This document shows, piece after piece, positions 3,503-52,513 of a stretch of 64,000 nucleotides of DNA. Position numbers and translations under genes: made by a program. The notes beneath the pieces were generated by a model. The model ran no database searches. It worked only from the letters and a program-made list of their open reading frames with translations, and was not told the DNA's origin. How positions within the stretch are numbered: position 1 is the first letter of the stretch; each line of letters begins with the position of its first letter. The stretch is from Candidatus Omnitrophota bacterium (GTDB taxonomy: Bacteria; Omnitrophota; Gorgyraeia; Gygaellales; Profunditerraquicolaceae): NCBI GenBank assembly GCA_041650495.1, contig JBAZLB010000002.1:165960-229959 (forward strand). The letters are read 5' to 3'.

Positions 3503-3958
3503 CTAAAGAAGGCTGTCTTTATCAAAAGGCAAGACCGCACCGGAGGCCTGGTCAATCTTACGGATTACTTTCTCTCTCGGTTTGATATTATTGTTAATAA
3601 AGCCCTTAAGCATCTGCCTGTCTTCTTCTTTCATTTCCAAAAAAGAGATACCGAAACGGAAGGTCTTCTCCTGCCAGGGTATAGCCCAACGCACCTTAGC
3701 CAGGGCCTCTATGGGCCCGTAAAAGATAACTTCTCCGGTATTGTTTATCCCGGTAAGGGATATCCATATACGAAGGAATGCGTTCTGCGGCAGGGAAATA
3801 CCGGCCTGGATACCCATGCCCCCTTCGCTGACATCGATAGCCGTTGCCTCTATCGGCTCTTGCTGGCTGTATGTCCCGTTCCTGTAATCAAGGTATTGCC
3901 TGAATTTAACCGTAGCATTAAGGGCAAGCCTTTGAAAACGACGGCTGTCTTTAAACAT
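3503..3958 (-). CDS. PilZ-domain c-di-GMP receptor protein
   Basis: RRFQR (RxxxR) and DVSEGGMG (DxSxxG) PilZ motifs. Start taken at MFKDS, 3 nt after the upstream gene's stop. Confidence 0.65.
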   Translation of the reverse strand: MFKDSRRFQRLALNATVKFRQYLDYRNGTYSQQEPIEATAIDVSEGGMGIQAGISLPQNAFLRIWISLTGINNTGEVIFYGPIEALAKVRWAIPWQEKTFRFGISFLEMKEEDRQMLKGFINNNIKPREKVIRKIDQASGAVLPFDKDSLL

Positions 3959-5306: not shown

Positions 5307-6587
5307 TTATAACTCCTGTCCCAGGCAATCAGCCAAAAGCATCAGGTTAGCTGCGCTAGCGCCTTTATTTTGCATGATTAATTCGCTGGCGCGTCTGCCC
5401 ATGCGGCTCATCTGTGAACAATCGCACAATAAATCCGTAACGCCCGTTACTATGTCTTTTTCGTTATGCACTAAAAGCGCAGCCTTATTTTCCAGAAATA
5501 ATTCCGCAATATCACGGAAGTTAAAGGTAAAGGGCCCGGTCAATATGGGTTTTGCCCACATTGCCGGCTCCAGCATATTATGCCCGCCTTTCCTCGCAAG
5601 GCTGCCTCCGACAAAAACAATATCTGCCAGGCGGTAAAAAGAAAGGAGCTGGCCGATGGTATCCAGTATAAAAACAGCCTGGCGCTCATGCCTCCAGGGA
5701 TTAGTTAAATCCATAAGGCTTATGCACAACGGCCTGAACCCAAACCTCTCTGCCAGGGCCGCTACCTCCGCAGCCCGCCATGGATGCCTGGGGGCAATCA
5801 GAAGTTTTAAAGAAGGAAATTCTCTGGTCAGTTTTTTATAAGCGCTTAAGATAATCCTTTCTTCCGGGCGATGGGTTGAACCGGCGACAAACAAAGGCCC
5901 AGGTTCACCCTGCATAACTTTAAGGCCGCTATCCATATGCTCTTTTTTAGAATCGCTTATATCGCAGATATCAAATTTCATATTCCCCGTTACCTTTATT
6001 TTCTCAGGCAGCACGCCTAAGCGTATAAGCCTGCCGGCATCATTTTCAGACTGCAGACAAAAAAGGGTGACCTTATTCAGTATCGGCCTGAACAGGAATT
6101 TTAGCCAGAGATACCCCTTAAAAGAACCATCAGATACCCGGCCGTTTACCACTACTATGGGTATATGCTTATTATAAAGGCAGGTTATCAAATTCGGCCA
6201 AATCTCTGTCTCCGCAATTACTAATATCTTAGGCTGTATTTTCTTCAAGGCCGCCTTAACACAAAAACTGAAATCCAGAGGAAGATAAAAAAGAAAATCC
6301 CCCGGGGAAAGCGCCCCTGCGGCAACCTTATTCCCCGTGGGGGTAACCGTAGATAATGCTATCTGCCTGCCGGGATAAAGATGACGCAGTCCTTCTATCA
6401 AATGCCTGACCGCCATCGCCTCTCCCACGCTTACCGCATGCACCCAAAGAGGGCTGTTTAGATTAAGCCCCCCGGGGAATAAACCCAGGCGCATAAAAAA
6501 CCCGCGGTGGAATTTACCTTTAAAGAAGTAAACCGGCAAATAAAACAATGCCACCAGTAAAAATATTAAATCATATATTAACCACAT
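5307..6587 (-). CDS. waaA: 3-deoxy-D-manno-octulosonic acid (Kdo) transferase
   Basis: N-terminal TM anchor, WVHAVSVGE motif, GT30 length. Confidence 0.85.
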   Translation of the reverse strand: MWLIYDLIFLLVALFYLPVYFFKGKFHRGFFMRLGLFPGGLNLNSPLWVHAVSVGEAMAVRHLIEGLRHLYPGRQIALSTVTPTGNKVAAGALSPGDFLFYLPLDFSFCVKAALKKIQPKILVIAETEIWPNLITCLYNKHIPIVVVNGRVSDGSFKGYLWLKFLFRPILNKVTLFCLQSENDAGRLIRLGVLPEKIKVTGNMKFDICDISDSKKEHMDSGLKVMQGEPGPLFVAGSTHRPEERIILSAYKKLTREFPSLKLLIAPRHPWRAAEVAALAERFGFRPLCISLMDLTNPWRHERQAVFILDTIGQLLSFYRLADIVFVGGSLARKGGHNMLEPAMWAKPILTGPFTFNFRDIAELFLENKAALLVHNEKDIVTGVTDLLCDCSQMSRMGRRASELIMQNKGASAANLMLLADCLGQEL

Positions 6588-9513: not shown

Positions 9514-10608
9514 CTACCTCTTCATGAATTGGCCGCTGGGCAGCTTATGGATCAACCGCCTTACCTGCAGCCTGACTATTGTTTCTGAAATATCCGCCAC
9601 CCCCGCTCCTGTCTTCTCTATAATTTCATCAAGCAGCAAAGGCGAAGAAGACAGGAGATTATAAATGGTATTTTCTCTTTCGTTTAAATTATGAACAGGA
9701 TTATCCTTCTTGGGCAGAACGGGCTCATTCTTAGGGGCCAGGGGGATATTCAATTCCTCGACAATATCTTCTACGCAGGAAACCAACTTTGCCCCCTGTT
9801 TGATAAGCGCATTTGTGCCTAAAGAATTAAGGCAGTCCACCTTGCCAGGCAGGGCAAAAACCTCCCTGCCCTGTTCTAAGGCAAAATCAGCGGTAATAAG
9901 CGCCCCGCTGTTAAGAGAGGCCTCAACCACCAACACCCCTAAACTCAGGCCGCTGATGAGCCGGTTGCGCCTGGGGAAATTTTGCTTCAAAGGCCCTGTC
10001 TCAATAGGAAATTCTGAAATAACCGCTCCATTCTCGGAAATAACCCCGCTGAGCTCCTTGTTCTCCGGCGGGTATATATGCCTGAAACCGCTGCCCAAGA
10101 CAGCAATAGTCCTGCCTCGTTTTCTTAATGCCCCCCGGTGGGCGCAGGTATCTATACCGCGGGCCATACCTGATACCACCGTCAGGCCGCATTCAACCAG
10201 ATCTCCCGCAAACCTCTCGGCGCAGGAAAGGCCGTAAAAAGAAGCCTGGCGGGAGCCGACTACCGCCACACTTAAATTATCTTCTGCCCTAAGGCCTCCT
10301 TTCACATAAAGAACAATCGCAGGATCAGGCATATATTTGAGGTTAAGTGGGTAATCCGGGCTTTCCAATGTAAGAATATCCAGGCCCAATCCCTTAGCCA
10401 GGCTAATCTCCCTGTCTATATCTTCTTGCCTGAAAGAATGGATTTTAGAGGCGATGCCCTCTCCGATACCAGAGACCCTCGTTAATTCATCAGGTGATGC
10501 CTTAAATATATTCTCCGGTTTTCCAAAGTAAGACAAAAGCTTATTCAGCCTGATACTGCCTATATCTAAGACCATATTCAAGCCCACTAATGCTCTTACG
10601 GTATCCAT
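9514..10608 (-). CDS. dprA: DNA processing protein DprA (Smf)
   Basis: SAM-like N-terminus, Rossmann-like DprA core (..GMARGIDTCAHRGAL..), C-terminal winged helix. Confidence 0.8.
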   Translation of the reverse strand: MDTVRALVGLNMVLDIGSIRLNKLLSYFGKPENIFKASPDELTRVSGIGEGIASKIHSFRQEDIDREISLAKGLGLDILTLESPDYPLNLKYMPDPAIVLYVKGGLRAEDNLSVAVVGSRQASFYGLSCAERFAGDLVECGLTVVSGMARGIDTCAHRGALRKRGRTIAVLGSGFRHIYPPENKELSGVISENGAVISEFPIETGPLKQNFPRRNRLISGLSLGVLVVEASLNSGALITADFALEQGREVFALPGKVDCLNSLGTNALIKQGAKLVSCVEDIVEELNIPLAPKNEPVLPKKDNPVHNLNERENTIYNLLSSSPLLLDEIIEKTGAGVADISETIVRLQVRRLIHKLPSGQFMKR

Positions 10609-40801: not shown

Positions 40802-41746
40802 CTAACCGGATATATTAAACTCCTCCCCGCCCACCCGCTTAAAAGGATGCCCTTCGGCATCACAAGGGTTACAGAATCCGTAATCCTGACAGAGAAAAAA
40901 CCCTCCGGGTAATACGATATGCAGGTTTTTGGCGAATATATTCCCCATTTTTTCTCCATGCCCGGTATAAAGTTTATAATGGCAATTATACATATCCCCG
41001 CTAGGAGAGAAAAGCACCTTATTCATCCGGCAATAAACAGGGCGTTTCTCCTTCTGGGAGAAACCCTCTGTGTAATCTTGATAATTATATATGCCATCCT
41101 CCTGCTGATAATTAATGTCATAGCCTTCTTTACAGGGGTATAATTTCCCCTGGTAATACCCCAGGAAACGCTGCACCTTGACTAAAGGATGCGCCTTTAA
41201 TAATTCCTTTTTATAACGCTGTATCTCCTCCATATGCCCGGGGTGGCCGACTATAAATATGGTGTGCACTTTAAAGCCTGTCTTTTTGACCTTAAGCATA
41301 TTCTCAATAAATTTATCCAGGGGGGTATAAAGAAAATGAAAGGAGCCGTTGAATTTGAGGTAGTACCTTTTTCTGATCTGCCTTAATTGCGCGGCATTGC
41401 CGGAAAAAAAGGGAGAGGTAAAATTGGAGGTAACGGTAATATTCCAGTTACGGTCAAGGTTATTGAGGATATAAACGAAGTCCGGATGCAGAGTAGGCTC
41501 TCCCCCGGTAATGGAGATCTTCTTTCTTTTGGCTGGCCTGAAGAAACGCCGTTTAACCCTGCCGGTAATGGAATTCAGAGCATCCACCCATTCCTTCCCG
41601 GAAACAAGGGGATAATGGGCTATCGGCTGGTTAGGTAAAGAAATCTTCTGCACGCAATAATCGCATTTAAAGGTGCAGGCTAAAGTCAGAAAAACCCCGA
41701 AGTAAGATTCAAAAGGCGCCTCAATTATTTTTCTTTCTAAAGACAA
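40802..41746 (-). CDS. Radical SAM enzyme with Cys-rich C-terminal (SPASM/twitch-like) extension, substrate unknown
   Basis: CTFKCDYC (CX3CX2C) cluster motif, GGEPTL glycine-rich SAM motif. C-terminal YCRMN..NCHYKLY..FLCQDYGFCNPCD auxiliary-cluster-like cysteines. Confidence 0.7.
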   Translation of the reverse strand: MSLERKIIEAPFESYFGVFLTLACTFKCDYCVQKISLPNQPIAHYPLVSGKEWVDALNSITGRVKRRFFRPAKRKKISITGGEPTLHPDFVYILNNLDRNWNITVTSNFTSPFFSGNAAQLRQIRKRYYLKFNGSFHFLYTPLDKFIENMLKVKKTGFKVHTIFIVGHPGHMEEIQRYKKELLKAHPLVKVQRFLGYYQGKLYPCKEGYDINYQQEDGIYNYQDYTEGFSQKEKRPVYCRMNKVLFSPSGDMYNCHYKLYTGHGEKMGNIFAKNLHIVLPGGFFLCQDYGFCNPCDAEGHPFKRVGGEEFNISG

Positions 41747-41955
41747 TTTTCTTCCTTTCTCATATGCATCCCCTGCCTGGATATCCTCTCACTTAAAGGC
41801 TGCCCTTAATTATAACACCAATAGCCAGAACATAAAATTTAATTTTTAAAGATACCTGCTTAGTGCTATAATGAGGCCTATAGCTACCTCTTAAGAGAAA
41901 GAGACCAAGAAGATTGAGATTGGCATACAATAACCTTGTTAAAAAGGAGGCTTAT

Positions 41956-42234
41956 ATGCCTGAAGATCTTAATGTATTTGAATTGATAAGGCTGGTCTTT
42001 TCCTGGCTCAACCCTATAATATTTGTCATAGGGGTTCTCTTATTAGCGGCTACTGAAAAAACATTTAAGAAAATAGAAGAATTCTTTGACCAGGAGAAAG
42101 GGTTTAAGAAAAGAGTGGTGCCGCTTTTGGAGAAAGATGCCTTTAATTTCCAGCAATGGACCATGAAAAACAGGCGGATAATCGGCCTGTTTTCTATTAT
42201 TTATGTTATCTGGTCAGCCACCATATTAAGGTAA
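41956..42234 (+). CDS. Small (92 aa) two-TM membrane protein, hypothetical
   Basis: Strong RBS AAAAGGAGG 7 nt upstream of the ATG at 41956. TATAAT-like box at ~41866. Hairpin terminators follow. Confidence 0.45.
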   Translation: MPEDLNVFELIRLVFSWLNPIIFVIGVLLLAATEKTFKKIEEFFDQEKGFKKRVVPLLEKDAFNFQQWTMKNRRIIGLFSIIYVIWSATILR

Positions 42235-42296
42235 TTTTCCCCGCTTAATCCTGCCGGGAATTCCCCCGGTATTTTCAGCCCAAGCTTAGGAATAAA

Positions 42297-42333
42297 TAAA
42301 AACCAGTAATCTTCTTGCTGGTTTTTATTTATT
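42297..42333 (+). terminator. Rho-independent terminator, possibly bidirectional
   Basis: AAAAACCAG-TAATCTTCTTG-CTGGTTTTTATTTATT: 8-9 bp stem then T-run, with an A-run upstream. A smaller CCGGG..CCCGG TATTTT hairpin lies at 42254-42275. Confidence 0.5.
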
Positions 42334-42386
42334 GCAGGGCTCAACTCCCCTTTAAGCCTATCTGCGATTCTAATCTTCTTACTCAG

Positions 42387-42545
42387 CTATTTTTGTCTTA
42401 ACAGGACAATGCCGCTTATTACAGACAATATTATGGTTACGTAATTATAGATAGCCCAGTAAGTGGCGTTATTCATAGCCATGCCTATAATTGTATAAAT
42501 CGCCAAAACCAACAACAACAGCCCGATTACTTGGTTCTTTTTCAT
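42387..42545 (-). CDS. Small hydrophobic protein (52 aa), hypothetical
   Basis: MKKNQVIGLLLLVLAIYTIIGMAMNNATYWAIYNYVTIILSVISGIVLLRQK. RBS GGAGGCGG upstream, preceded by the ATGAATAAAAACCAATTAA motif. Confidence 0.35.
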   Translation of the reverse strand: MKKNQVIGLLLLVLAIYTIIGMAMNNATYWAIYNYVTIILSVISGIVLLRQK

Positions 42546-42579
42546 AACCGCCTCCAAACGACTGTTAATTGGTTTTTAT

Positions 42580-42840
42580 TCATCTAATAATGTTTATAAT
42601 AAAGAATACCACCGCTACTATGGAGAAACCAGCTAAGAATATCCCCATTATTTTAGTATTGCGGATTTCTTTTTGCATAGAGATGGGTTCAATACGCCAA
42701 TTTATCTTTTCATAAAACTTCTTTTGGATTTCAATAGTCAGTTCAGGTTTAAAAAAGACGAATAGGCCGATTATAATGCTAGCCATAGGAAGTAAGATTA
42801 GAATAAACTGTGTATTTATAATCCAATCGATTACTCTCAT
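42580..42840 (-). CDS. Small two-TM membrane protein (86 aa), hypothetical
   Basis: Start ATG overlaps the upstream gene's TGA (ATGA), RBS GGGAGAG. Translationally coupled to the 42837..43286 gene. Confidence 0.4.
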   Translation of the reverse strand: MRVIDWIINTQFILILLPMASIIIGLFVFFKPELTIEIQKKFYEKINWRIEPISMQKEIRNTKIMGIFLAGFSIVAVVFFIINIIR

Positions 42841-43286
42841 CTCTCCCGCAATGTCCTTAGTGCCCATAGGATAAAGCGGATGGGCAAGAAAATCAAATAG
42901 AGGATCAATACTTTAACTATAAATACTTTACCGAAAAAAGAAATTGATAATTCAGACCTATAAACCGCATTAGAATTTACACAGCTTGATTCTCCTAAAT
43001 CAGATTTAATACGTGCCGTATCTATAAATTCCCTTATCCGTTTTTCAATAAGTTTTGGCGGTGGATGAAGAGCTTCTTTTATAATCTCTTTAGAATTATA
43101 ACCACTACGAATCTCTGGATATATATTTATAGTGTATGTTTCTCCGTTAAGAAACTCCAATTTATATTTTGGAAATACAACGGGCATTTCAGGAAGAAAA
43201 CGCAGGATTACATACAATACAACAGCTAACCCTATTATTATCATCCCTTCTATCGCTATTATCCGCTTAATCTTTTTCTTATCCAT
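42837..43286 (-). CDS. Membrane protein (149 aa) with N- and C-terminal TM segments, hypothetical
   Basis: Complete ORF in the low-GC islet, preceded by the ATGAATAAAAACCAATTAA motif. Confidence 0.4.
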   Translation of the reverse strand: MDKKKIKRIIAIEGMIIIGLAVVLYVILRFLPEMPVVFPKYKLEFLNGETYTINIYPEIRSGYNSKEIIKEALHPPPKLIEKRIREFIDTARIKSDLGESSCVNSNAVYRSELSISFFGKVFIVKVLILYLIFLPIRFILWALRTLRER

Positions 43287-43673
43287 TCTTGATCACTCAA
43301 GCAACTATTAATTGGTTTTTATTCATCTTTTCTTAAAGGTCTTTAATTTGTCTCTATACATCTGCTTCCTTTCTCTTAATAACCTTGATATATCCTTCTG
43401 TCTTCTTGTAATTCTTTCTCTTGGCATTACCTAAAATATTCCTTTTCCCTAAATGTACTTACCGCATGTTTTGCAATTAGTGAACTTGCTATATAGATCT
43501 CCTTTTGCAGAATAAAAAAGCAACCCCCTATTTTAAAGAATTACCCTTAGATTTTGCCTATTTTGGCCCTATAACCACTCTTTTGTGGTTGTAGGTGTAT
43601 TATATCATTTTTAAAGTATCATTTAAGGATTTTTGCAAAACTCTTCGCGATAGAAAGAAATCCGCTCAGACCA

Positions 43674-43711
43674 ACAAAAAAGCGGAGACTCTTAATCCCA
43701 GAATCTCCGCC
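43674..43711 (-). terminator. Rho-independent terminator ending the RND...DUF2934 transcript
   Basis: Minus strand GGCGGAGA-TTCTGGGATTAAGAG-TCTCCGC followed by TTTTTTG. Confidence 0.55.
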
Positions 43712-43945
43712 TTCTCTTTTATATGGTTGCGGGGGTCAGTATACTAAAGAACTATACTTCTGAATCAAAAGCAACCATATTATATAGAAATAGAGCAAAT
43801 ATCAAAAAATCATGGACATAAGAGATAGATTTTATGTCCGCTTTGTCCGGTCATTTTTGGATAGAAATTGCATAACTCTTTGGGAGATTAAGAGATAAGG
43901 TTGTCCACCTCTCTTTATCCGGACATAGGCAATAAATTACTGCTT

Positions 43946-44116
43946 TTAGAAACTACAGCCTAGTAATTCTTTCTTCATTTGGCTTTTTACAATTTTTTCA
44001 GCCTGCAGCCAATAATCTAAATCACGGCTATGCTTACACCCATCCTTTTTCCAGAGCTCTTCCGCCTTTACTCTTATATAATCGGTTAGGTCAATTTCTT
44101 TACTTTTCTTTTTCAT
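43946..44116 (-). CDS. DUF2934-family small protein (56 aa)
   Basis: MKKKSKEIDLTDYIRVKAEELWKKDGCKHSRDLDYWLQAEKIV.. matches the DUF2934 A-x-E-x-W...G...D...W..AE pattern as I recall it. RBS AAAGGAG. Below the 60-aa ORF-track cutoff. Confidence 0.5.
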   Translation of the reverse strand: MKKKSKEIDLTDYIRVKAEELWKKDGCKHSRDLDYWLQAEKIVKSQMKKELLGCSF

Positions 44117-44134
44117 AACAACTCCTTTCTTGGG

Positions 44135-45355
44135 CTAATTTGTATTTATCCCTGGCGGAGTTTTCTTCCAATTATATCCTTGTGCCGCTTCTTCATAGCC
44201 CAACTTAAAAAGCTCTCGCATTTCAACGGGGTCAAAAAGCTCCCTGGCTTTTGATACATGGGTTGCCGGGATATAAGCAAGATTAAAATCTCCCTTACCA
44301 TCTTTCGTAAATAAATATAACTGAAAAAGATCTCCTATGCTCTGGGCGTTTGTGATCGTATCTACGGCACGTTCAGTTATCGCGAAAAGAGTATCATGAA
44401 CTTCTTTATAGACAGGATCTACATAACCGTTCCTTATCACGTAAATTTTATACTTATTCCTGTGGACATCGATGCTCTTTTCTTTAAGCGCTTTATCAAA
44501 CCCCTGCAGTACATCGTAAAGAAAAAAAACCTGCTTACTTATCCCGCCGTCAACATGCATTTCATCATAGACTCTGTCACCGACCTCTACGTCCAAATAA
44601 ACCGGAGGACAAGCAATGGGTATAGATGCCGATGCCAATATAACCCTGCGAAACAACTCTAAGGCTTTATCATCTCCTATAGAGGCAACCTTACCCATAT
44701 CCCAGATAACAAGCCGCTCTGCATCAAGATTAGTCGTGCCTATATAAAGCCTGCGGCCTCCATTATACTCAATAGCTATTTCCTTCATTAATCGCGCATC
44801 GAAATAGCGCTCAATCAAAAGCTTTAATGGAGTGGTGCTGGCGATGGAATTACTGAAAGGAATTCTTATACGTGGCGAGCGTACCCGCATAATGTCTTTC
44901 GTAGAATACTGCGTGTATATTTCCTTTAATTTTTCATCGTAGCTGCTGCCCAAAAAAGCAAACGGCGCAGTTATCGCTCCGGTGCTTATGCCGGTAACCA
45001 CCTTAAAAACCGGCCGTGTGCCAGATTGCGACCAACCACTCAACAATCCGGCACCGTAGGCGCCGTTAGCCGCGCCCCCTGAGATAGCAAGCATTGAATA
45101 TGTCCGACTGGCTTTGAAATTAAAAAAAAGCGGGCCTTCTCTTTCTTCCTGCTCCAACAACTTAACATAATCATTTTTAAAAGAATCACTGGGGCTACCG
45201 CTGAACGCCCTGATATCCTGCATGCCGAAAACCCGCGCGCTACTTAATAAATCCGGCGGGATAGCATGCCGTACGCTTGCGCACCCGGAAATAAAAAAAA
45301 TGAATATACTAAATAAATATAGTAGTTTTCTTGTCACTATCCGTCTATACATCAA
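44135..45355 (-). CDS. Patatin-like phospholipase, predicted lipoprotein
   Basis: Lipobox FISGCAS. Oxyanion/G-rich SGGAANGAYGAG, nucleophile elbow GISTG, catalytic DGG (VDGGIS). Confidence 0.8.
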   Translation of the reverse strand: MMYRRIVTRKLLYLFSIFIFFISGCASVRHAIPPDLLSSARVFGMQDIRAFSGSPSDSFKNDYVKLLEQEEREGPLFFNFKASRTYSMLAISGGAANGAYGAGLLSGWSQSGTRPVFKVVTGISTGAITAPFAFLGSSYDEKLKEIYTQYSTKDIMRVRSPRIRIPFSNSIASTTPLKLLIERYFDARLMKEIAIEYNGGRRLYIGTTNLDAERLVIWDMGKVASIGDDKALELFRRVILASASIPIACPPVYLDVEVGDRVYDEMHVDGGISKQVFFLYDVLQGFDKALKEKSIDVHRNKYKIYVIRNGYVDPVYKEVHDTLFAITERAVDTITNAQSIGDLFQLYLFTKDGKGDFNLAYIPATHVSKARELFDPVEMRELFKLGYEEAAQGYNWKKTPPGINTN

Positions 45356-49420: not shown

Positions 49421-50109
49421 TGAGTCAATTCCTTCTTATCTGTTTTTCCGGCGTTTACTACCCGCAGCCGGTCATTATCCTCAAGCATACTCTGTCCGCT
49501 AAAGATTACTTTATCCCCGGATTGCAGCCCTTCGGAGATTATCGCGCCATAGCCGTTGCGTAACCGGATAACCACTTTGCCTTTCTTGGCGAAGCCATTC
49601 TCATCTTTCCAGACAAAATATTCGTCTCCGGCGATATCTAATACTTCATTGGAAACGGCTAATACGTTATGCAGCGTCGTGGTATGAGCGCGAACCACTA
49701 ACGCAACTCCCGGATCCCGAGGCTTATTGAACTCTATTTCTACCGGAAACATACCGGCGTCCATATCTAATTCCGCGCCTATGCTTTTTAATCGGGCGCA
49801 AACAACAGATTTATCGGCCGGATCGTATATCTCTTGCCCTTCCCGAAGCGCATTCTTTACTTCACCGGTGACAAAACCGCGGGCAAGGCGTCCGTCAATA
49901 ATTCTGACCGTAAACTGGGCGTAGACGGGGACATCCTCAGTCTTAATCACCCGAACCTCAACCGGCTTTCCGGCCTTCTTCCATTCCTCATAGAAACTGA
50001 CGATTGCCTTTCCGCGAGCCGCCTTGACCGCCTGGATACGTATTACGACGGAAGCTAAACTAACGATAATAATTATTAAGTATACCGTCTCTCGCTTAAG
50101 GTTTTTCAT
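49417..50109 (-). CDS. Short periplasmic adaptor (membrane fusion protein, HlyD/AcrA family)
   Basis: N-terminal TM anchor, beta-barrel/lipoyl-like segments, 4-nt overlap with the RND gene. Only 230 aa, so the alpha-hairpin appears reduced. Confidence 0.6.
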   Translation of the reverse strand: MKNLKRETVYLIIIIVSLASVVIRIQAVKAARGKAIVSFYEEWKKAGKPVEVRVIKTEDVPVYAQFTVRIIDGRLARGFVTGEVKNALREGQEIYDPADKSVVCARLKSIGAELDMDAGMFPVEIEFNKPRDPGVALVVRAHTTTLHNVLAVSNEVLDIAGDEYFVWKDENGFAKKGKVVIRLRNGYGAIISEGLQSGDKVIFSGQSMLEDNDRLRVVNAGKTDKKELTQ

Positions 50110-51460
50110 ATTCGTATTTTTCGGTTACTAATTTCTCGATTTTTGCCAGCGTTATATTTATATTGTAAAGCGTGGCTTCCTTATTGAGCCTTTGGTTAGT
50201 CAAAAGAAGTTCCGCAGTGTTAAGATCGGTGATACTGACCTGGCCAGAAGAAAACATCTCCTGTGTCTGTTTAAAGGCCTCTTCGGCAAGGTTTACTGCT
50301 TCGATGTTTGCTTCAAGATTGTCCTTATACTGTTCATATTCTAAATAAGCTTTCTTAAGCTCCAACAATAAATCTTTTCCTGCCTGTTCTTTCCTGAGAA
50401 CAGCAATTTCTTTATCCGCTTTAGCTTGACTCAACTGAGCCTCCTTTGCTCCTCCCTCCCAAATCGGGATACTCACCTTAAGGCCGGCGGCAGAGTAATT
50501 ATCGAGTTCGTCCCAAGCAGTAGTTTTATTGGAATCGCTGCGATAATTCATAGAGGCAAACGCCGAAATCGTAGGCAGAAAATTTGCATACTTGCTTTTT
50601 ACGTTCGCCTCGGTAGAGTAGATTGTTTTACCAAGTTCCTGCAAATAAGGTTCATATGCGTACATGGCATTCACCAGCGTTTCATAATTAAAATCAGCAT
50701 ATTGTTCTTGAAAATTTCCCTCAAGTTCAATCTTCCGGTCAAGATCAATATCAATAATCCTTCTTAAGGTTTCAGTGGCGGCATCGAATTGGGTGCGGGC
50801 TTCATTGACTGCCGGAATCCTAGCCGAGACATCGGCATTCATTTTAACGATCTCATATTTCGAGCTACGGCCTCCGTAAGAGCGCTGCCCGAGCAATTTT
50901 TTATTCTCAAGAACATCTACATATGATTTCTCGGCTATAGCTAGCGTATTTTTAGCAAGCAGGCAGCTATAGTAAGTTAATTTTGCGGCAAAAATAACTT
51001 CTTGCCTGCTTGCTTCACTGTTAAAACGAGTCGCTTCGACCGCATTCTTAGCCGAATCTATTGCGTACATCACTTTGCCAAACGACCAAACAAGCTGCGA
51101 AGCGCTTAAGCCGTTATCTAATGAATGGTCGTAATACTTGCCGGCGGCTTTAGCCGGGTAATCCATATTGTTAGTCCAAGTCGATTGGCCGCTAATATGC
51201 AGCAATGCCTCGGAGCGAACTTCTCCGTAAACCCCCTTGCTTCTCTTAACCTCGCTATCCTTTATTTTTAATTCCTCGCTGTTTTCCAAGGCACGTCTGA
51301 TAGTTTCATCAAGGCTAATTTGCAAAGCAGAACTTATCTGAGAACCATCTGCCAGGGCGATATTAAAGATAAACGCTACGATAGCACACAAACTTGTAAT
51401 AAATAACATTGGTCTTTTCATTGCTGTATTATCACCTCTAATCTTCTTAGGAAAAGCCAC
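50096..51460 (-). CDS. TolC-family outer-membrane efflux channel
   Basis: Signal peptide and two OEP repeats with coiled-coil-rich sequence. Overlaps the adaptor gene. Confidence 0.8.
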   Translation of the reverse strand: MAFPKKIRGDNTAMKRPMLFITSLCAIVAFIFNIALADGSQISSALQISLDETIRRALENSEELKIKDSEVKRSKGVYGEVRSEALLHISGQSTWTNNMDYPAKAAGKYYDHSLDNGLSASQLVWSFGKVMYAIDSAKNAVEATRFNSEASRQEVIFAAKLTYYSCLLAKNTLAIAEKSYVDVLENKKLLGQRSYGGRSSKYEIVKMNADVSARIPAVNEARTQFDAATETLRRIIDIDLDRKIELEGNFQEQYADFNYETLVNAMYAYEPYLQELGKTIYSTEANVKSKYANFLPTISAFASMNYRSDSNKTTAWDELDNYSAAGLKVSIPIWEGGAKEAQLSQAKADKEIAVLRKEQAGKDLLLELKKAYLEYEQYKDNLEANIEAVNLAEEAFKQTQEMFSSGQVSITDLNTAELLLTNQRLNKEATLYNINITLAKIEKLVTEKYEYEKP

Positions 51461-51596
51461 AATCTATGCTCCGATATGAACATCATGTCATTCTATGAAC
51501 ATATGTTCATAAACATAATATAACATTCACAATACCTTTTGTCAAGGTGATTTTAATATTTTAGTAAACTATGCGGAATTGGTATTATGGTGGGAA
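51461..51596. promoter_or_regulatory. Promoter/operator region of the efflux operon with TetR-type palindromes
   Basis: Perfect 18-bp palindrome TATGAACATATGTTCATA plus a half-site ATGAACATCATGTCAT. The related imperfect palindrome TGAACGATTGTTCA lies upstream of tetR at ~52245. AATATAACATTCA is shared between both regions. Confidence 0.5.
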
Positions 51597-52208
51597 CTAT
51601 TTATTTGCAGTACCGTTTAGGAATAATCTAAGAATTACGCCAGACAAATCAATTAAATTGTCGTTCTTCTCCTTCTTCTCTTCCAGCCATCTTTGAATAA
51701 TCGTTTTTATAATAGAAGTAAACACCTCCGCGATCTGTCCCGCATCAAAATCCCTGCTGACAACTCCCTGCTCTTGCGCTTCCTTCAGTAGGCTTGTTGT
51801 ATATTCTTGCATTTGTAGCCCGGTGGGAGATTTTAAGATTCTTCTTTCCGACAATAATTCGTTTCCCTCAGAAATAAATATACGAAAAAAATCCTGGTTC
51901 TTTTCAAAAAAGACTAAGCCTTCTTGCACAAAAATCTCCAGCTTCCTTCTTGTATCTTTCACCTGCCCTATCTTTTCCTTAATTGTAACTTGCAAACTTT
52001 TCATCTTCTCTTCAAGCAAAGCAAAATAAAGGGCATCCTTATCTTTAAAATGTAGATAAACCGTTCCGGTAGCGTACTGTGCTTCTTTTGCAATATCTCT
52101 TATTGTCGCCTCGTGGTACCCTTTTAAAGCAAATAAGTGCTCGGCTGCTTTCAGGATATCGGACCTGCGCAATTGCCTATCTCTTTCTTTTCTGCTTAAC
52201 ACGGTCAT
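51597..52208 (-). CDS. TetR/AcrR-family transcriptional repressor
   Basis: N-terminal HTH (..ATIRDIAKEAQYATGTVYLHF..), ~200 aa. Confidence 0.8.
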   Translation of the reverse strand: MTVLSRKERDRQLRRSDILKAAEHLFALKGYHEATIRDIAKEAQYATGTVYLHFKDKDALYFALLEEKMKSLQVTIKEKIGQVKDTRRKLEIFVQEGLVFFEKNQDFFRIFISEGNELLSERRILKSPTGLQMQEYTTSLLKEAQEQGVVSRDFDAGQIAEVFTSIIKTIIQRWLEEKKEKNDNLIDLSGVILRLFLNGTANK

Positions 52209-52469
52209 CTTTACTCCTATGAATTATGAATAATGTCTAAATAATGAACGATTGTTCACAATTAAATATAACATTCAAACAGTCTTCTGTCAAGGCAATT
52301 TCTAAAATTTGAGAGGTGAACCCGATAAGGACGCCCATACCTTGCCATAAAGGAATGGCAAGTATGCGGCTTTCTGCCGCAGAAATACGGCACGGCAGAA
52401 AGACTCTCTGTATATAGCTATATTTTAATTTTAAAAGAACTCCGTCCTCTCCTCTGCCCTCATAATTTT

Positions 52470-52513
52470 AACTATAAATAAAAGAGCGCCTTACGTATCT
52501 GTAAGACGCTCTT
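52470..52513 (-). terminator. Rho-independent terminator immediately 3' of the tRNA-fMet gene
   Basis: Minus strand AAGAGCG-TCTTACAGATACGTAAGG-CGCTCTT followed by TTATTTAT. Confidence 0.55.

Follow-up and report, generated by a model that had tools for sequence, protein, structure and literature searches.

A start module recurring across Omnitrophota and an operon of small membrane-protein genes that carries two copies of it

Omnitrophota are uncultured, very small and probably host-dependent bacteria whose way of life is presumed to be mediated by the proteins that they secrete or carry on their surface. Here we describe an islet of small genes at positions 41,747 to 44,134 of a 64,000-nucleotide (nt) stretch of a Candidatus Omnitrophota genome (GenBank assembly GCA_041650495.1, contig JBAZLB010000002.1, positions 165,960 to 229,959), which we call the window and whose numbering is used throughout; related loci in other assemblies carry L numbers. 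The islet lies between a radical SAM gene and a patatin gene and holds a short duplicated motif on its minus strand. This motif is two copies, in the genome's own version, of a start module that recurs across the lineage, and the minus-strand genes around it form a chain of overlapping cistrons from conserved small-protein families that recur beside the module in other genomes.

Several described systems resemble parts of this arrangement. In the bicistronic design, a short first cistron, on whose start initiation is easy, holds the Shine-Dalgarno (SD) sequence of the second gene and ends in a stop/start overlap with it (PMC5995908; reviewed in PMC8601185). One of the two tiny upstream open reading frames (uORFs) in the islet, uORF1, and the gene for a 52-amino-acid (aa) protein that follows it reproduce this layout exactly, with GGAGG inside uORF1 and ATGA on the start of the 52-aa gene. 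Unlike that design, the Omnitrophota module occurs in nature and throughout a lineage, keeps its nucleotide sequence across unrelated loci and doubles as an in-frame N-terminus, and its function is one that we infer. The nearest natural counterpart of a signal-peptide start shared by unrelated proteins is the SVM motif of phytoplasma effectors (PF12113), in which otherwise unrelated secreted proteins of one lineage have a conserved N-terminal signal peptide in common (PMC8026896). The module differs from it: there is no sequence relationship (ten MNKKQLIV proteins gave no PF12113 match at E<=1e-3), it spans only about 10 residues, about 40% of its copies are tiny separate ORFs, and no link to a mobile unit was seen.

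In the mycoplasma vsa/vsp genes and in Borrelia lipoprotein genes, near-identical 5' ends cover the start and the first signal-peptide codons while the sequence downstream is reshuffled; these systems use inverted sites and a dedicated recombinase, act at one locus and produce phase or antigenic variation. Copies of the module, by contrast, are direct repeats; each genome has few of them, they occur in many species, and a recombinase was not found. Integron cassette arrays, like the islet, consist of co-oriented small AT-rich genes of unassigned function that vary between relatives and have a short repeat at their junctions. The repeat described here, however, is a 31-nt direct repeat at gene 5' ends and within coding sequence; taking attC sites as imperfect inverted repeats of 57–141 bp between cassettes, no attC inverted repeat or hairpin was present, and no integrase was seen. 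Finally, leader-peptide attenuators of the erm, cat and trp type likewise have a very short ORF immediately before the regulated gene, where it overlaps that gene's ribosome-binding site. The original prediction had noted that each copy could encode a tiny leader peptide; a regulatory attenuator of this kind is not supported: no alternative structure hides the downstream SD or forms a terminator, the RNA around the two window copies has no stable fold (81- and 141-nt folds, z -1.33, -0.06, +0.26 and +0.07), and the peptide is not conserved in frame or length among copies.

The start module and the operon that carries it

The motif had been described as a 20-nt element at 42558–42578 and 43298–43318. 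There are indeed two copies, and they are 21 nt long (AGATGAATAAAAACCAATTAA) and lie 7–10 nt away, at 42565–42585 and 43308–43328. This 21-mer occurs exactly twice in 64 kb, with matches in 0 of 100 shuffles, and is the core of a 31-nt direct repeat of 90% identity whose copies are 743 nt apart. Each copy opens a tiny ORF, as had been proposed: MNKNQLIVA* for uORF2 and MNKNQLTVVWRRL* for uORF1. The motif is not an upstream element particular to the islet; it is a gene-start module found throughout the lineage, with the full consensus AA-ATGAATAAAAAACAATTAATAGTTGCTTGG (about 30 nt, encoding MNKKQLIVAW). Two close relatives, L013 and L010, carry the module sequence two to three times around a 150-aa gene.

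The spread of the module was measured in two scans. At the species level, one genome per species was searched with the 20-mer AATAAAAAMCAATTAAYAGT, which gave 95 stretches; about half lay in Omnitrophota metagenome-assembled genomes (MAGs) or in MAGs with the same genes and were nearly all preceded by ATG, and the remainder were chance matches in AT-rich genomes, for example in the Pelagibacter HU gene. Metagenomes were searched with ATGAAYAARAARCARYTNATHGT, a degenerate back-translation of MNKKQLIV, which gave at least 120 loci and, with HU and a clostridial family removed, at least 91 Omnitrophota-type copies (91–93), with 52 long ORFs and 38 ORFs of 25 aa or fewer among the matches listed. 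About 57% of copies are the true N-terminus, over the first ten codons, of otherwise unrelated secreted, lipoprotein or membrane proteins. Their mature domains are Trypsin_2, DUF3142, LprI, BamE-like or none, and in many of these long ORFs a lipobox or AxA site can be picked out by eye (...LNLTSC, ...LLSGC, ...PSFAGD). About 42% of copies are ORFs of 4–25 codons that stop at, or a few bases from, the start of the next gene.

The module is conserved beyond what codon usage would produce. The exact 24-mer is present in 48% of the copies listed, against 0.75% expected from gene-body codon usage, or 2.4% from the usage of the first ten codons, in the same contigs. Across 76 contexts whose flanks are at most 60% identical, the exact 23-mer is found in 39 (51%), and mismatch counts are bimodal, with 0–1 in 50 contexts and 3–6 in 23. 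Conservation extends upstream only to AA at -2/-1 and ends downstream after codon 10. At one orthologous site, window copy 2 and the first copy in L013 differ at 1 of 23 nt, with the synonymous third positions of the adjacent gene 69% identical. Synonymous variants do exist, such as ATGAACAAGAAACAGCTTATTGTTATGTGG in the MNKKQLIVMWVGIA... family, which indicates that the peptide is also under selection in real proteins. We found no description of the MNKKQLIV motif in the searchable literature, and the 2026 Omnitrophota complete-genome preprint (10.64898/2026.06.07.730766) does not mention the module.

A promoter reading of the motif (sigma-70, sigma-54 or ECF, assessed by eye) was dropped, since the conserved bases fall off the positions of -35/-10 and -24/-12 elements, and since in most cases the stop codon of the gene before it lies within the motif. 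Two further observations concern its distribution. In L193 (a 171-aa ORF), L217, L154 and L202 the module also opens a small domain with two transmembrane (TM) helices that is fused in tandem, giving internal repeats of MN(K/R)KQ.IV.W-TM-...-(I/L)YTL(R)(D/N)KKK. In addition, records titled Planctomycetia, Planctomycetales or Phycisphaerales (L036, L026, L068, L079, L093, L018) carry the module together with Omnitrophota-type small genes, one of which (in L036) is a 79% homologue of the 52-aa protein; these may be mislabelled bins, or the module may reach beyond Omnitrophota.

In the window, the module sits within a chain of six minus-strand cistrons (Table 1) in the order 34-aa ORF, uORF2, 149-aa gene, 86-aa gene, uORF1 and 52-aa gene. 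At four of the five junctions a stop and a start codon overlap as ATGA: 34-aa/uORF2 (43326–43323), 149/86 (42840–42837), 86/uORF1 (42583–42580) and uORF1/52-aa (42545–42542). The fifth, uORF2/149-aa, is a 10-nt gap. The genes lie on one strand with overlapping or abutting stops and starts, an arrangement expected of a translationally coupled polycistronic operon, in which translation of a downstream gene would depend on that of the gene before it. The 52-, 86- and 149-aa genes had been placed essentially where we find them, with the 149/86 overlap. By contrast, the roughly 650 nt beyond them that had been considered non-coding contain the 34-aa ORF, a DUF2934 gene, a terminator and a promoter/leader element.

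Conservation in relatives had been named as a check on these small ORFs, and homologues exist for all of them. The 149-aa protein has 27 homologues at 44–83% identity, nearly all from Omnitrophota, and its family is specific to that lineage; a hypothetical protein of a Candidatus Omnitrophota MAG is 100% identical to it, and the window itself matches ENA contig k141_879708. Homologues of the 86-aa protein occur in L055 (69%) and L052 (66%), and the L052 member itself begins MNKKQLIV, so that there the module is its own N-terminus. The 52-aa protein has homologues at 60–81% identity in L199, L036 and L033. As had been said of them, none of these three proteins, nor the 92-aa protein encoded on the plus strand, has a domain above any curated cut-off (Pfam, NCBIfam, PADLOC, PHROGs); the 86-aa protein has a weak DUF6199 match below the cut-off, and the 52-aa protein weak sub-threshold holin-like matches. 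The 34-aa ORF escaped the gene callers and encodes a highly basic peptide that is 91–94% identical in five other genomes. Third positions of its conserved degenerate codons are only 0.44–0.53 identical to L013/L010 and 0.76–0.81 identical to L088/L117, and retention of the peptide despite this low identity marks a real microprotein under purifying selection. In every case a copy of the module comes straight after this ORF, which has no family match and no match among PDB sequences.

Table 1. Features of the islet and of related loci. Positions refer to the window unless a locus is named.
Feature	Position	Strand	Remarks
Promoter-like site ahead of 92-aa gene	41845..41872	+	TTTAAA, 16 nt, TG-TATAAT; 10/12 consensus positions; consensus match only
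92-aa two-TM protein gene	41956..42234	+	AAAGGAGG upstream
Two terminator hairpins	42252..42333	.	GCCGGGAATTCCCCCGG + U-rich tail, then 19-bp A/U-flanked palindrome at 42291-42333
52-aa two-TM protein gene	42387..42545	-	MKKNQVIGLLLL...
uORF1	42542..42583	-	MNKNQLTVVWRRL*; ATG overlaps 86-aa stop, stop overlaps 52-aa ATG
Motif copy 1	42555..42585	-	31-nt repeat; exact 21-mer 42565-42585
86-aa two-TM protein gene	42580..42840	-	start overlaps 149-aa stop (ATGA)
149-aa protein gene	42837..43286	-	TM helix, small beta-beta-alpha-alpha-beta domain, C-terminal helical hairpin ending WALRTLRER
uORF2	43297..43326	-	MNKNQLIVA*; ATG overlaps 34-aa stop; stop 10 nt before 149-aa ATG
Motif copy 2	43298..43328	-	31-nt repeat; exact 21-mer 43308-43328
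34-aa highly basic microprotein ORF	43323..43427	-	MPRERITRRQKDISRLLRERKQMYRDKLKTFKKR (MPRERITRRQKDISRLLRERKQMYRDKL...); uncalled by gene callers
34-aa ORF in relatives	L013 6462-6563; L010 1754-1855; L085 127-228; L088 2831-2932; L117 2239-2340
Promoter + leader element	43510..43607	-	extended -10, P1, mini-ORF position, P2, U6
Extended -10	43607-43599	-	TGATATAAT; conserved form across copies GTGATATAAT
Hairpin P1	43595-43568	-	3' arm: SD-like GGAGGTGG + ATG of 4-codon mini-ORF
Mini-ORF position	43572-43558	-	ATA GGG CCA AAA TAG in window; ATG in most other copies
Hairpin P2	~43547-43518	-	GGCAACUCUC/GGGGGUUGCC; U6 at 43519-43514; two G.U pairs in window copy
Leader copies elsewhere	L134 2676-2777; L173 6063-6160; L172 489-588; L227 2336-2434; L099 1256-1329; ~20 more
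Intrinsic terminator, end of patatin-DUF2934 transcript	43675..43710	-	GGCGGAGAUUCUGGGAUUAAGAGUCUCCGC + U6; -23.1 kcal/mol, z -5.08
56-aa DUF2934 gene	43946..44116	-	PF11154, 40.4 bits vs cut-off 22, E 2.3e-10

Proposed coupling and exchange at the module, and decay of its copies

With little more than even confidence, we read the region as a typical Omnitrophota locus for small exported or membrane proteins, in which the module is a portable translation-start and coupling unit where genes get reshuffled. Where it is an N-terminus, the module would contribute the charged n-region of a signal peptide or N-terminal anchor together with the first part of the hydrophobic core, and the module in general would be a portable, unstructured, A-rich unit for initiation and coupling. 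Ribosomes ending one small gene could restart on the module and then pass to the next gene, whose SD would often lie inside the leader cistron (GTT TGG AGG). Expression of the 149-aa gene would plausibly depend on such re-initiation after uORF2, since this gene has no good SD of its own and starts 10 nt past the uORF2 stop. Because the module is near-identical wherever it is found, it might also be a junction that lets different loci exchange the genes lying downstream of it.

The geometry of module copies is consistent with coupling. Among 61 distinct uORFs, 46 have the start of an ORF of at least 40 aa nearby, and the offset from uORF stop to next start has its mode at -4 (ATGA, n=10; uORF1 is one example), followed by -8, +1 and +10 (n=4 each). 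An SD-like sequence is present in 31 of this set and is often the module's own GTT TGG AGG. On the other side, the stop of the upstream ORF overlaps the module's ATG as ATGA in 30 of 132 copies and lies 0–4 nt away in 13 more; since ATGA opens the module, the gene before it can take its stop codon from there.

The genes placed behind the module are both recurrent and exchangeable. The original prediction called for a search of other genomes for the motif together with the small genes, and the pairings of a uORF with the 149-aa family (L013, L104, L098, L110, L167, L228) and with the 52-aa family (L036, L199) recur in several; a third pairing is with a zinc-ribbon family (L020, L093, L180, L228). 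The gene that follows the 34-aa ORF and module varies: the window has the 149-aa gene there, L013 and L010 a gene for a 104-aa zinc-ribbon membrane protein, L088 one for a 133-aa protein and L117 one for a 58-aa protein.

Several points weigh against reading the module as a start and coupling unit. Of the 61 uORFs, 15 have no ORF of at least 40 aa within 60 nt (some of these are at contig ends). Many downstream genes have an SD of their own, so that coupling may be dispensable for them; translation of the uORFs is itself a prediction from the sequence; and coupling alone leaves the retention of the exact nucleotides unexplained. There are only 1–3 exact copies per locus set, a low copy number per genome. 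Moreover, some copies are degenerate, namely MNKK* (L159), a frameshifted MDKNN* (L010, 1-nt deletion) and ATA for ATG in L013 copy 2, and L013 and L010 also have third copies that have decayed further. Early stop, frameshift and lost ATG indicate that some copies are decaying, and the metagenome sample, having been chosen on the peptide, cannot gauge how often.

These decayed copies are what would be expected if the uORFs were non-functional and the module simply the 5' end of a signal-peptide gene family whose rearrangement left truncated stubs. The uORF peptides are, in keeping with this, free to vary past residue 8–10 and in length, and some, such as MNKKQLIVAW-AVRTLGER*, resemble an N-terminus joined to the C-terminus of the 149-aa family, which suggests internal deletions. 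We nonetheless think it unlikely that the uORFs are scars. The exact 23-mer is present in 23 of 38 peptide-coding uORF copies, at least as often as in N-termini (24 of 52), uORF stops cluster on the next start codon with ATGA as the mode, and the pairing of uORF and gene has been kept though the adjacent genes differ at 17–41% of sampled synonymous third positions.

The excess of exact sequence, 20- to 60-fold over the codon-usage expectation, and the bimodal mismatch counts could also reflect a binding site, in mRNA or DNA, through which a lineage-specific RNA-binding protein, small RNA (sRNA) or transcription factor would co-control a regulon of envelope and exported proteins. The module covers the translation start, the usual place of action of repressors and sRNAs, and the highly conserved basic microprotein of 34 aa is always encoded just upstream of a copy. 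However, no partner was identified, the module contains neither palindrome nor hairpin, and copies per genome are few, and we consider a regulator site very unlikely. The sRNA version of the idea was rejected on its own account, as complementarity between the module and the conserved leader RNA next to the operon is not significant (z -1.5 to +0.5).

The variety of genes behind the unit of 34-aa ORF and module, and the varied order of the gene families with a module at each junction, raise the question of whether small exported-protein genes are swapped at the identical 30-mer in cassette-like fashion, by homologous or site-specific recombination. The two window copies share AAAAACC where relatives have AAAAAAC at orthologous positions, which hints at conversion between them. 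The hint is weakened by the occurrence of the MNKNQL variant in L134, L117 and L143. We regard a recombination site as very improbable indeed, for no recombinase was seen beside the loci examined, the copies are direct and not inverted, there is no attC-like inverted repeat, 24–30 nt is short for RecA-dependent exchange, and comparison of the window with two independent assemblies, L001 and L002, revealed no structural variants. We would rate as quite unlikely a more ambitious scheme in which the module is kept at the nucleotide level because a recombination or RNA-binding factor particular to the lineage recognizes it, within an Omnitrophota cassette-like system that swaps and co-regulates small exported- and membrane-protein genes; the 34-aa basic microprotein and the mini-ORF leader described below would then be candidate parts of the machinery.

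Composition and setting of the islet

The islet is AT-rich, as first described: in 500-nt bins over 42001–44500 the GC content is 0.382, 0.340, 0.320, 0.344 and 0.390, against 0.43–0.52 elsewhere and 0.463 +/- 0.023 in the background genes of the window (n=54). We compared the GC content of third codon positions (GC3) of each gene with that expected from its amino-acid sequence and the codon usage of the 54 background genes, using background segments of the same length. With amino-acid content allowed for in this way, GC3 is abnormally low in the 149-aa gene (-0.21), the 34-aa ORF (-0.25), the DUF2934 gene (-0.17) and the 86-aa gene (-0.14; empirical p <= 0.003), marginal in the patatin gene (p 0.026) and normal in the 92-aa, 52-aa and radical SAM genes. 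The check on codon usage that the original prediction called for thus gives a divided answer, and the compositional anomaly is not uniform across the islet. A second low-GC patch is present in the window at 51501–52500 (0.356–0.386), where the two background genes of lowest GC3 are located (51597–52208 and 50096–51460).

In all six relatives examined (L013, L010, L003, L005, L006, L008), GC3 of the 149-aa homologue is 0.06–0.22 below that of neighbouring long ORFs. The AT bias is a trait of this gene family and travels with it, and the bias alone cannot date a transfer into the present genome. Of the suggestion that the islet is horizontally acquired accessory DNA, the second half stands: the locus can be called accessory inasmuch as relatives have its gene families in quite different surroundings. 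It also lies at a break in synteny, as the genes opposite differ between relatives that share the flanking radical SAM gene; in L230, where the radical SAM-purB-purL block is conserved, they are eno-divIC, and in L229 they are truA/rplM. There is little reason to see recent acquisition as the cause of the low GC, since all the genomes examined show low GC3 in the 149-aa family. Among relatives that share the flanking radical SAM gene, even the nearest are only about 73% identical in it and have different neighbours, so that an insertion is not demonstrable by comparison of close relatives.

Low GC, abnormal GC3 in four genes, the synteny break and the presence of small membrane proteins of unassigned function, one with sub-threshold holin-like matches, are the features that speak for the idea of a recently acquired toxin/immunity or membrane-stress cassette under MNKNQL leader peptides. 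We find this highly improbable. The small proteins have no PADLOC, PHROG, Pfam or NCBIfam matches, and no toxin, immunity, defence or phage family was above cut-off; PADLOC returned nothing for the six small proteins, and what it matched in the flanking genes was generic (phospholipase and radical SAM). The 23-mer pattern of the module has 0 matches in 2.9 million viral contigs and 1.26 kb of the operon has no plasmid DNA match, and a phage or plasmid origin was rejected on these grounds. The window has no tRNA, and no integrase was noticed in it. Also at odds with such a cassette are the low GC3 of the 149-aa family in six of six other genomes, the host-like codon usage of the 92- and 52-aa genes and the lack of an attenuator structure.

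We also rejected the idea that the radical SAM gene and the small genes together form a pathway for ribosomally synthesized and post-translationally modified peptides, since the radical SAM gene is conserved beside purB even where relatives lack the small genes, and is normal in composition. Radical SAM genes are found 1–2 kb from 149-aa homologues in two other, unrelated contexts (L004/L005 6461–7872 and L006 7940–9382), one of which adjoins an Smr gene. This nearness is probably coincidence, given that the radical SAM gene of the window is the conserved purB neighbour.

Leader, terminators and neighbouring genes

Upstream of the operon lies a conserved promoter and structured leader (Table 1). 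The leader DNA is 76–83% identical to six other loci, and nhmmer finds it in about 25 other loci at E<0.01. Its fold in the window has a minimum free energy of -28.5 kcal/mol (z -4.96). Two hairpins, P1 and P2, are separated by an A/U linker. Across 16 copies, pairing is kept in 93.7% of cells in P2, with some compensatory changes, and in 74% in the inner helix of P1, where four pairs are changed on both sides. The predicted P1 hairpin would hide the SD and ATG of a mini-ORF, whose peptides elsewhere include MRLK*, MRLR*, MGFK* and MEVK* and whose stop falls within a conserved AAAUAGG. The SD of the next gene lies 5–25 nt past P2 and its U tract. An Rfam scan of 41000–45000 at E<=1 gave no family for the leader, only two sub-threshold matches (E 0.28 and 0.62) at the bidirectional terminator, outside the leader. 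A ribosome-dependent attenuator, a small RNA and a 5' stabiliser are candidates for what the leader might be.

The second hairpin with its U tract is also found alone, just after stop codons. Such lone P2 hairpins (GGCAACTCTCTAAAATAGGGGGTTGCC + T-tract) occur at L143 ~10301–10339, L203 ~6051–6117, L217 ~3694–3745 and others, with a compensatory variant GGCAGA/TCTGCC in L121; P2 is a terminator module of conserved sequence that recurs across Omnitrophota genomes. The form of an intrinsic terminator, a G+C-containing stem-loop with a U tract behind it, was found at P2 (z -4.96), at 43710–43675 (-5.08) and at 42291–42333 (-5.75).

The last of these belongs to the 92-aa gene on the plus strand, for which the strong ribosome-binding site (AAAGGAGG) and tandem terminators described earlier are both present. 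The 42291–42333 palindrome is an inverted repeat of 95% complementarity that folds well on the plus (z -5.96) and minus (z -5.75) strands, and it is predicted to work on both, ending the 92-aa gene and the convergent minus-strand operon. A word-indexed search had shown the 92-aa protein as an apparent orphan. Exhaustive HMMER searches identified 32 remote relatives of the same length (33 proteins at E<=1e-3, all about 90–105 aa), which align end to end and make up a family of about 92–95 aa that has no named domain and no Pfam family.

On the patatin side, the DUF2934 gene, called as a gene in L001 too, has AAAGGAG 6 nt upstream and begins 18 nt past the patatin stop; it is predicted to be co-transcribed with the patatin gene. 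Between its stop and its terminator, a second conserved non-coding stretch at 43832–43933 is 74% identical over 102 nt to L221 5028–5129. The words TGTCCG(G)/CCGGACA are repeated within it and could form pairs or serve as sites for a regulator.

The locus bears on both annotation and the biology of the phylum. A conserved 34-aa gene and ORFs of 4–25 codons were missed by standard annotation, exposing blind spots in gene calling, and for the 149-aa gene family low GC by itself says little about horizontal transfer. The module offers a natural analogue of an engineered expression device and raises the question of whether its nucleotide identity is held by translation, regulation or recombination. 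As a start sequence that dozens of unrelated exported-protein genes share almost unchanged, it gives a simple handle for finding the exported repertoire of Omnitrophota.

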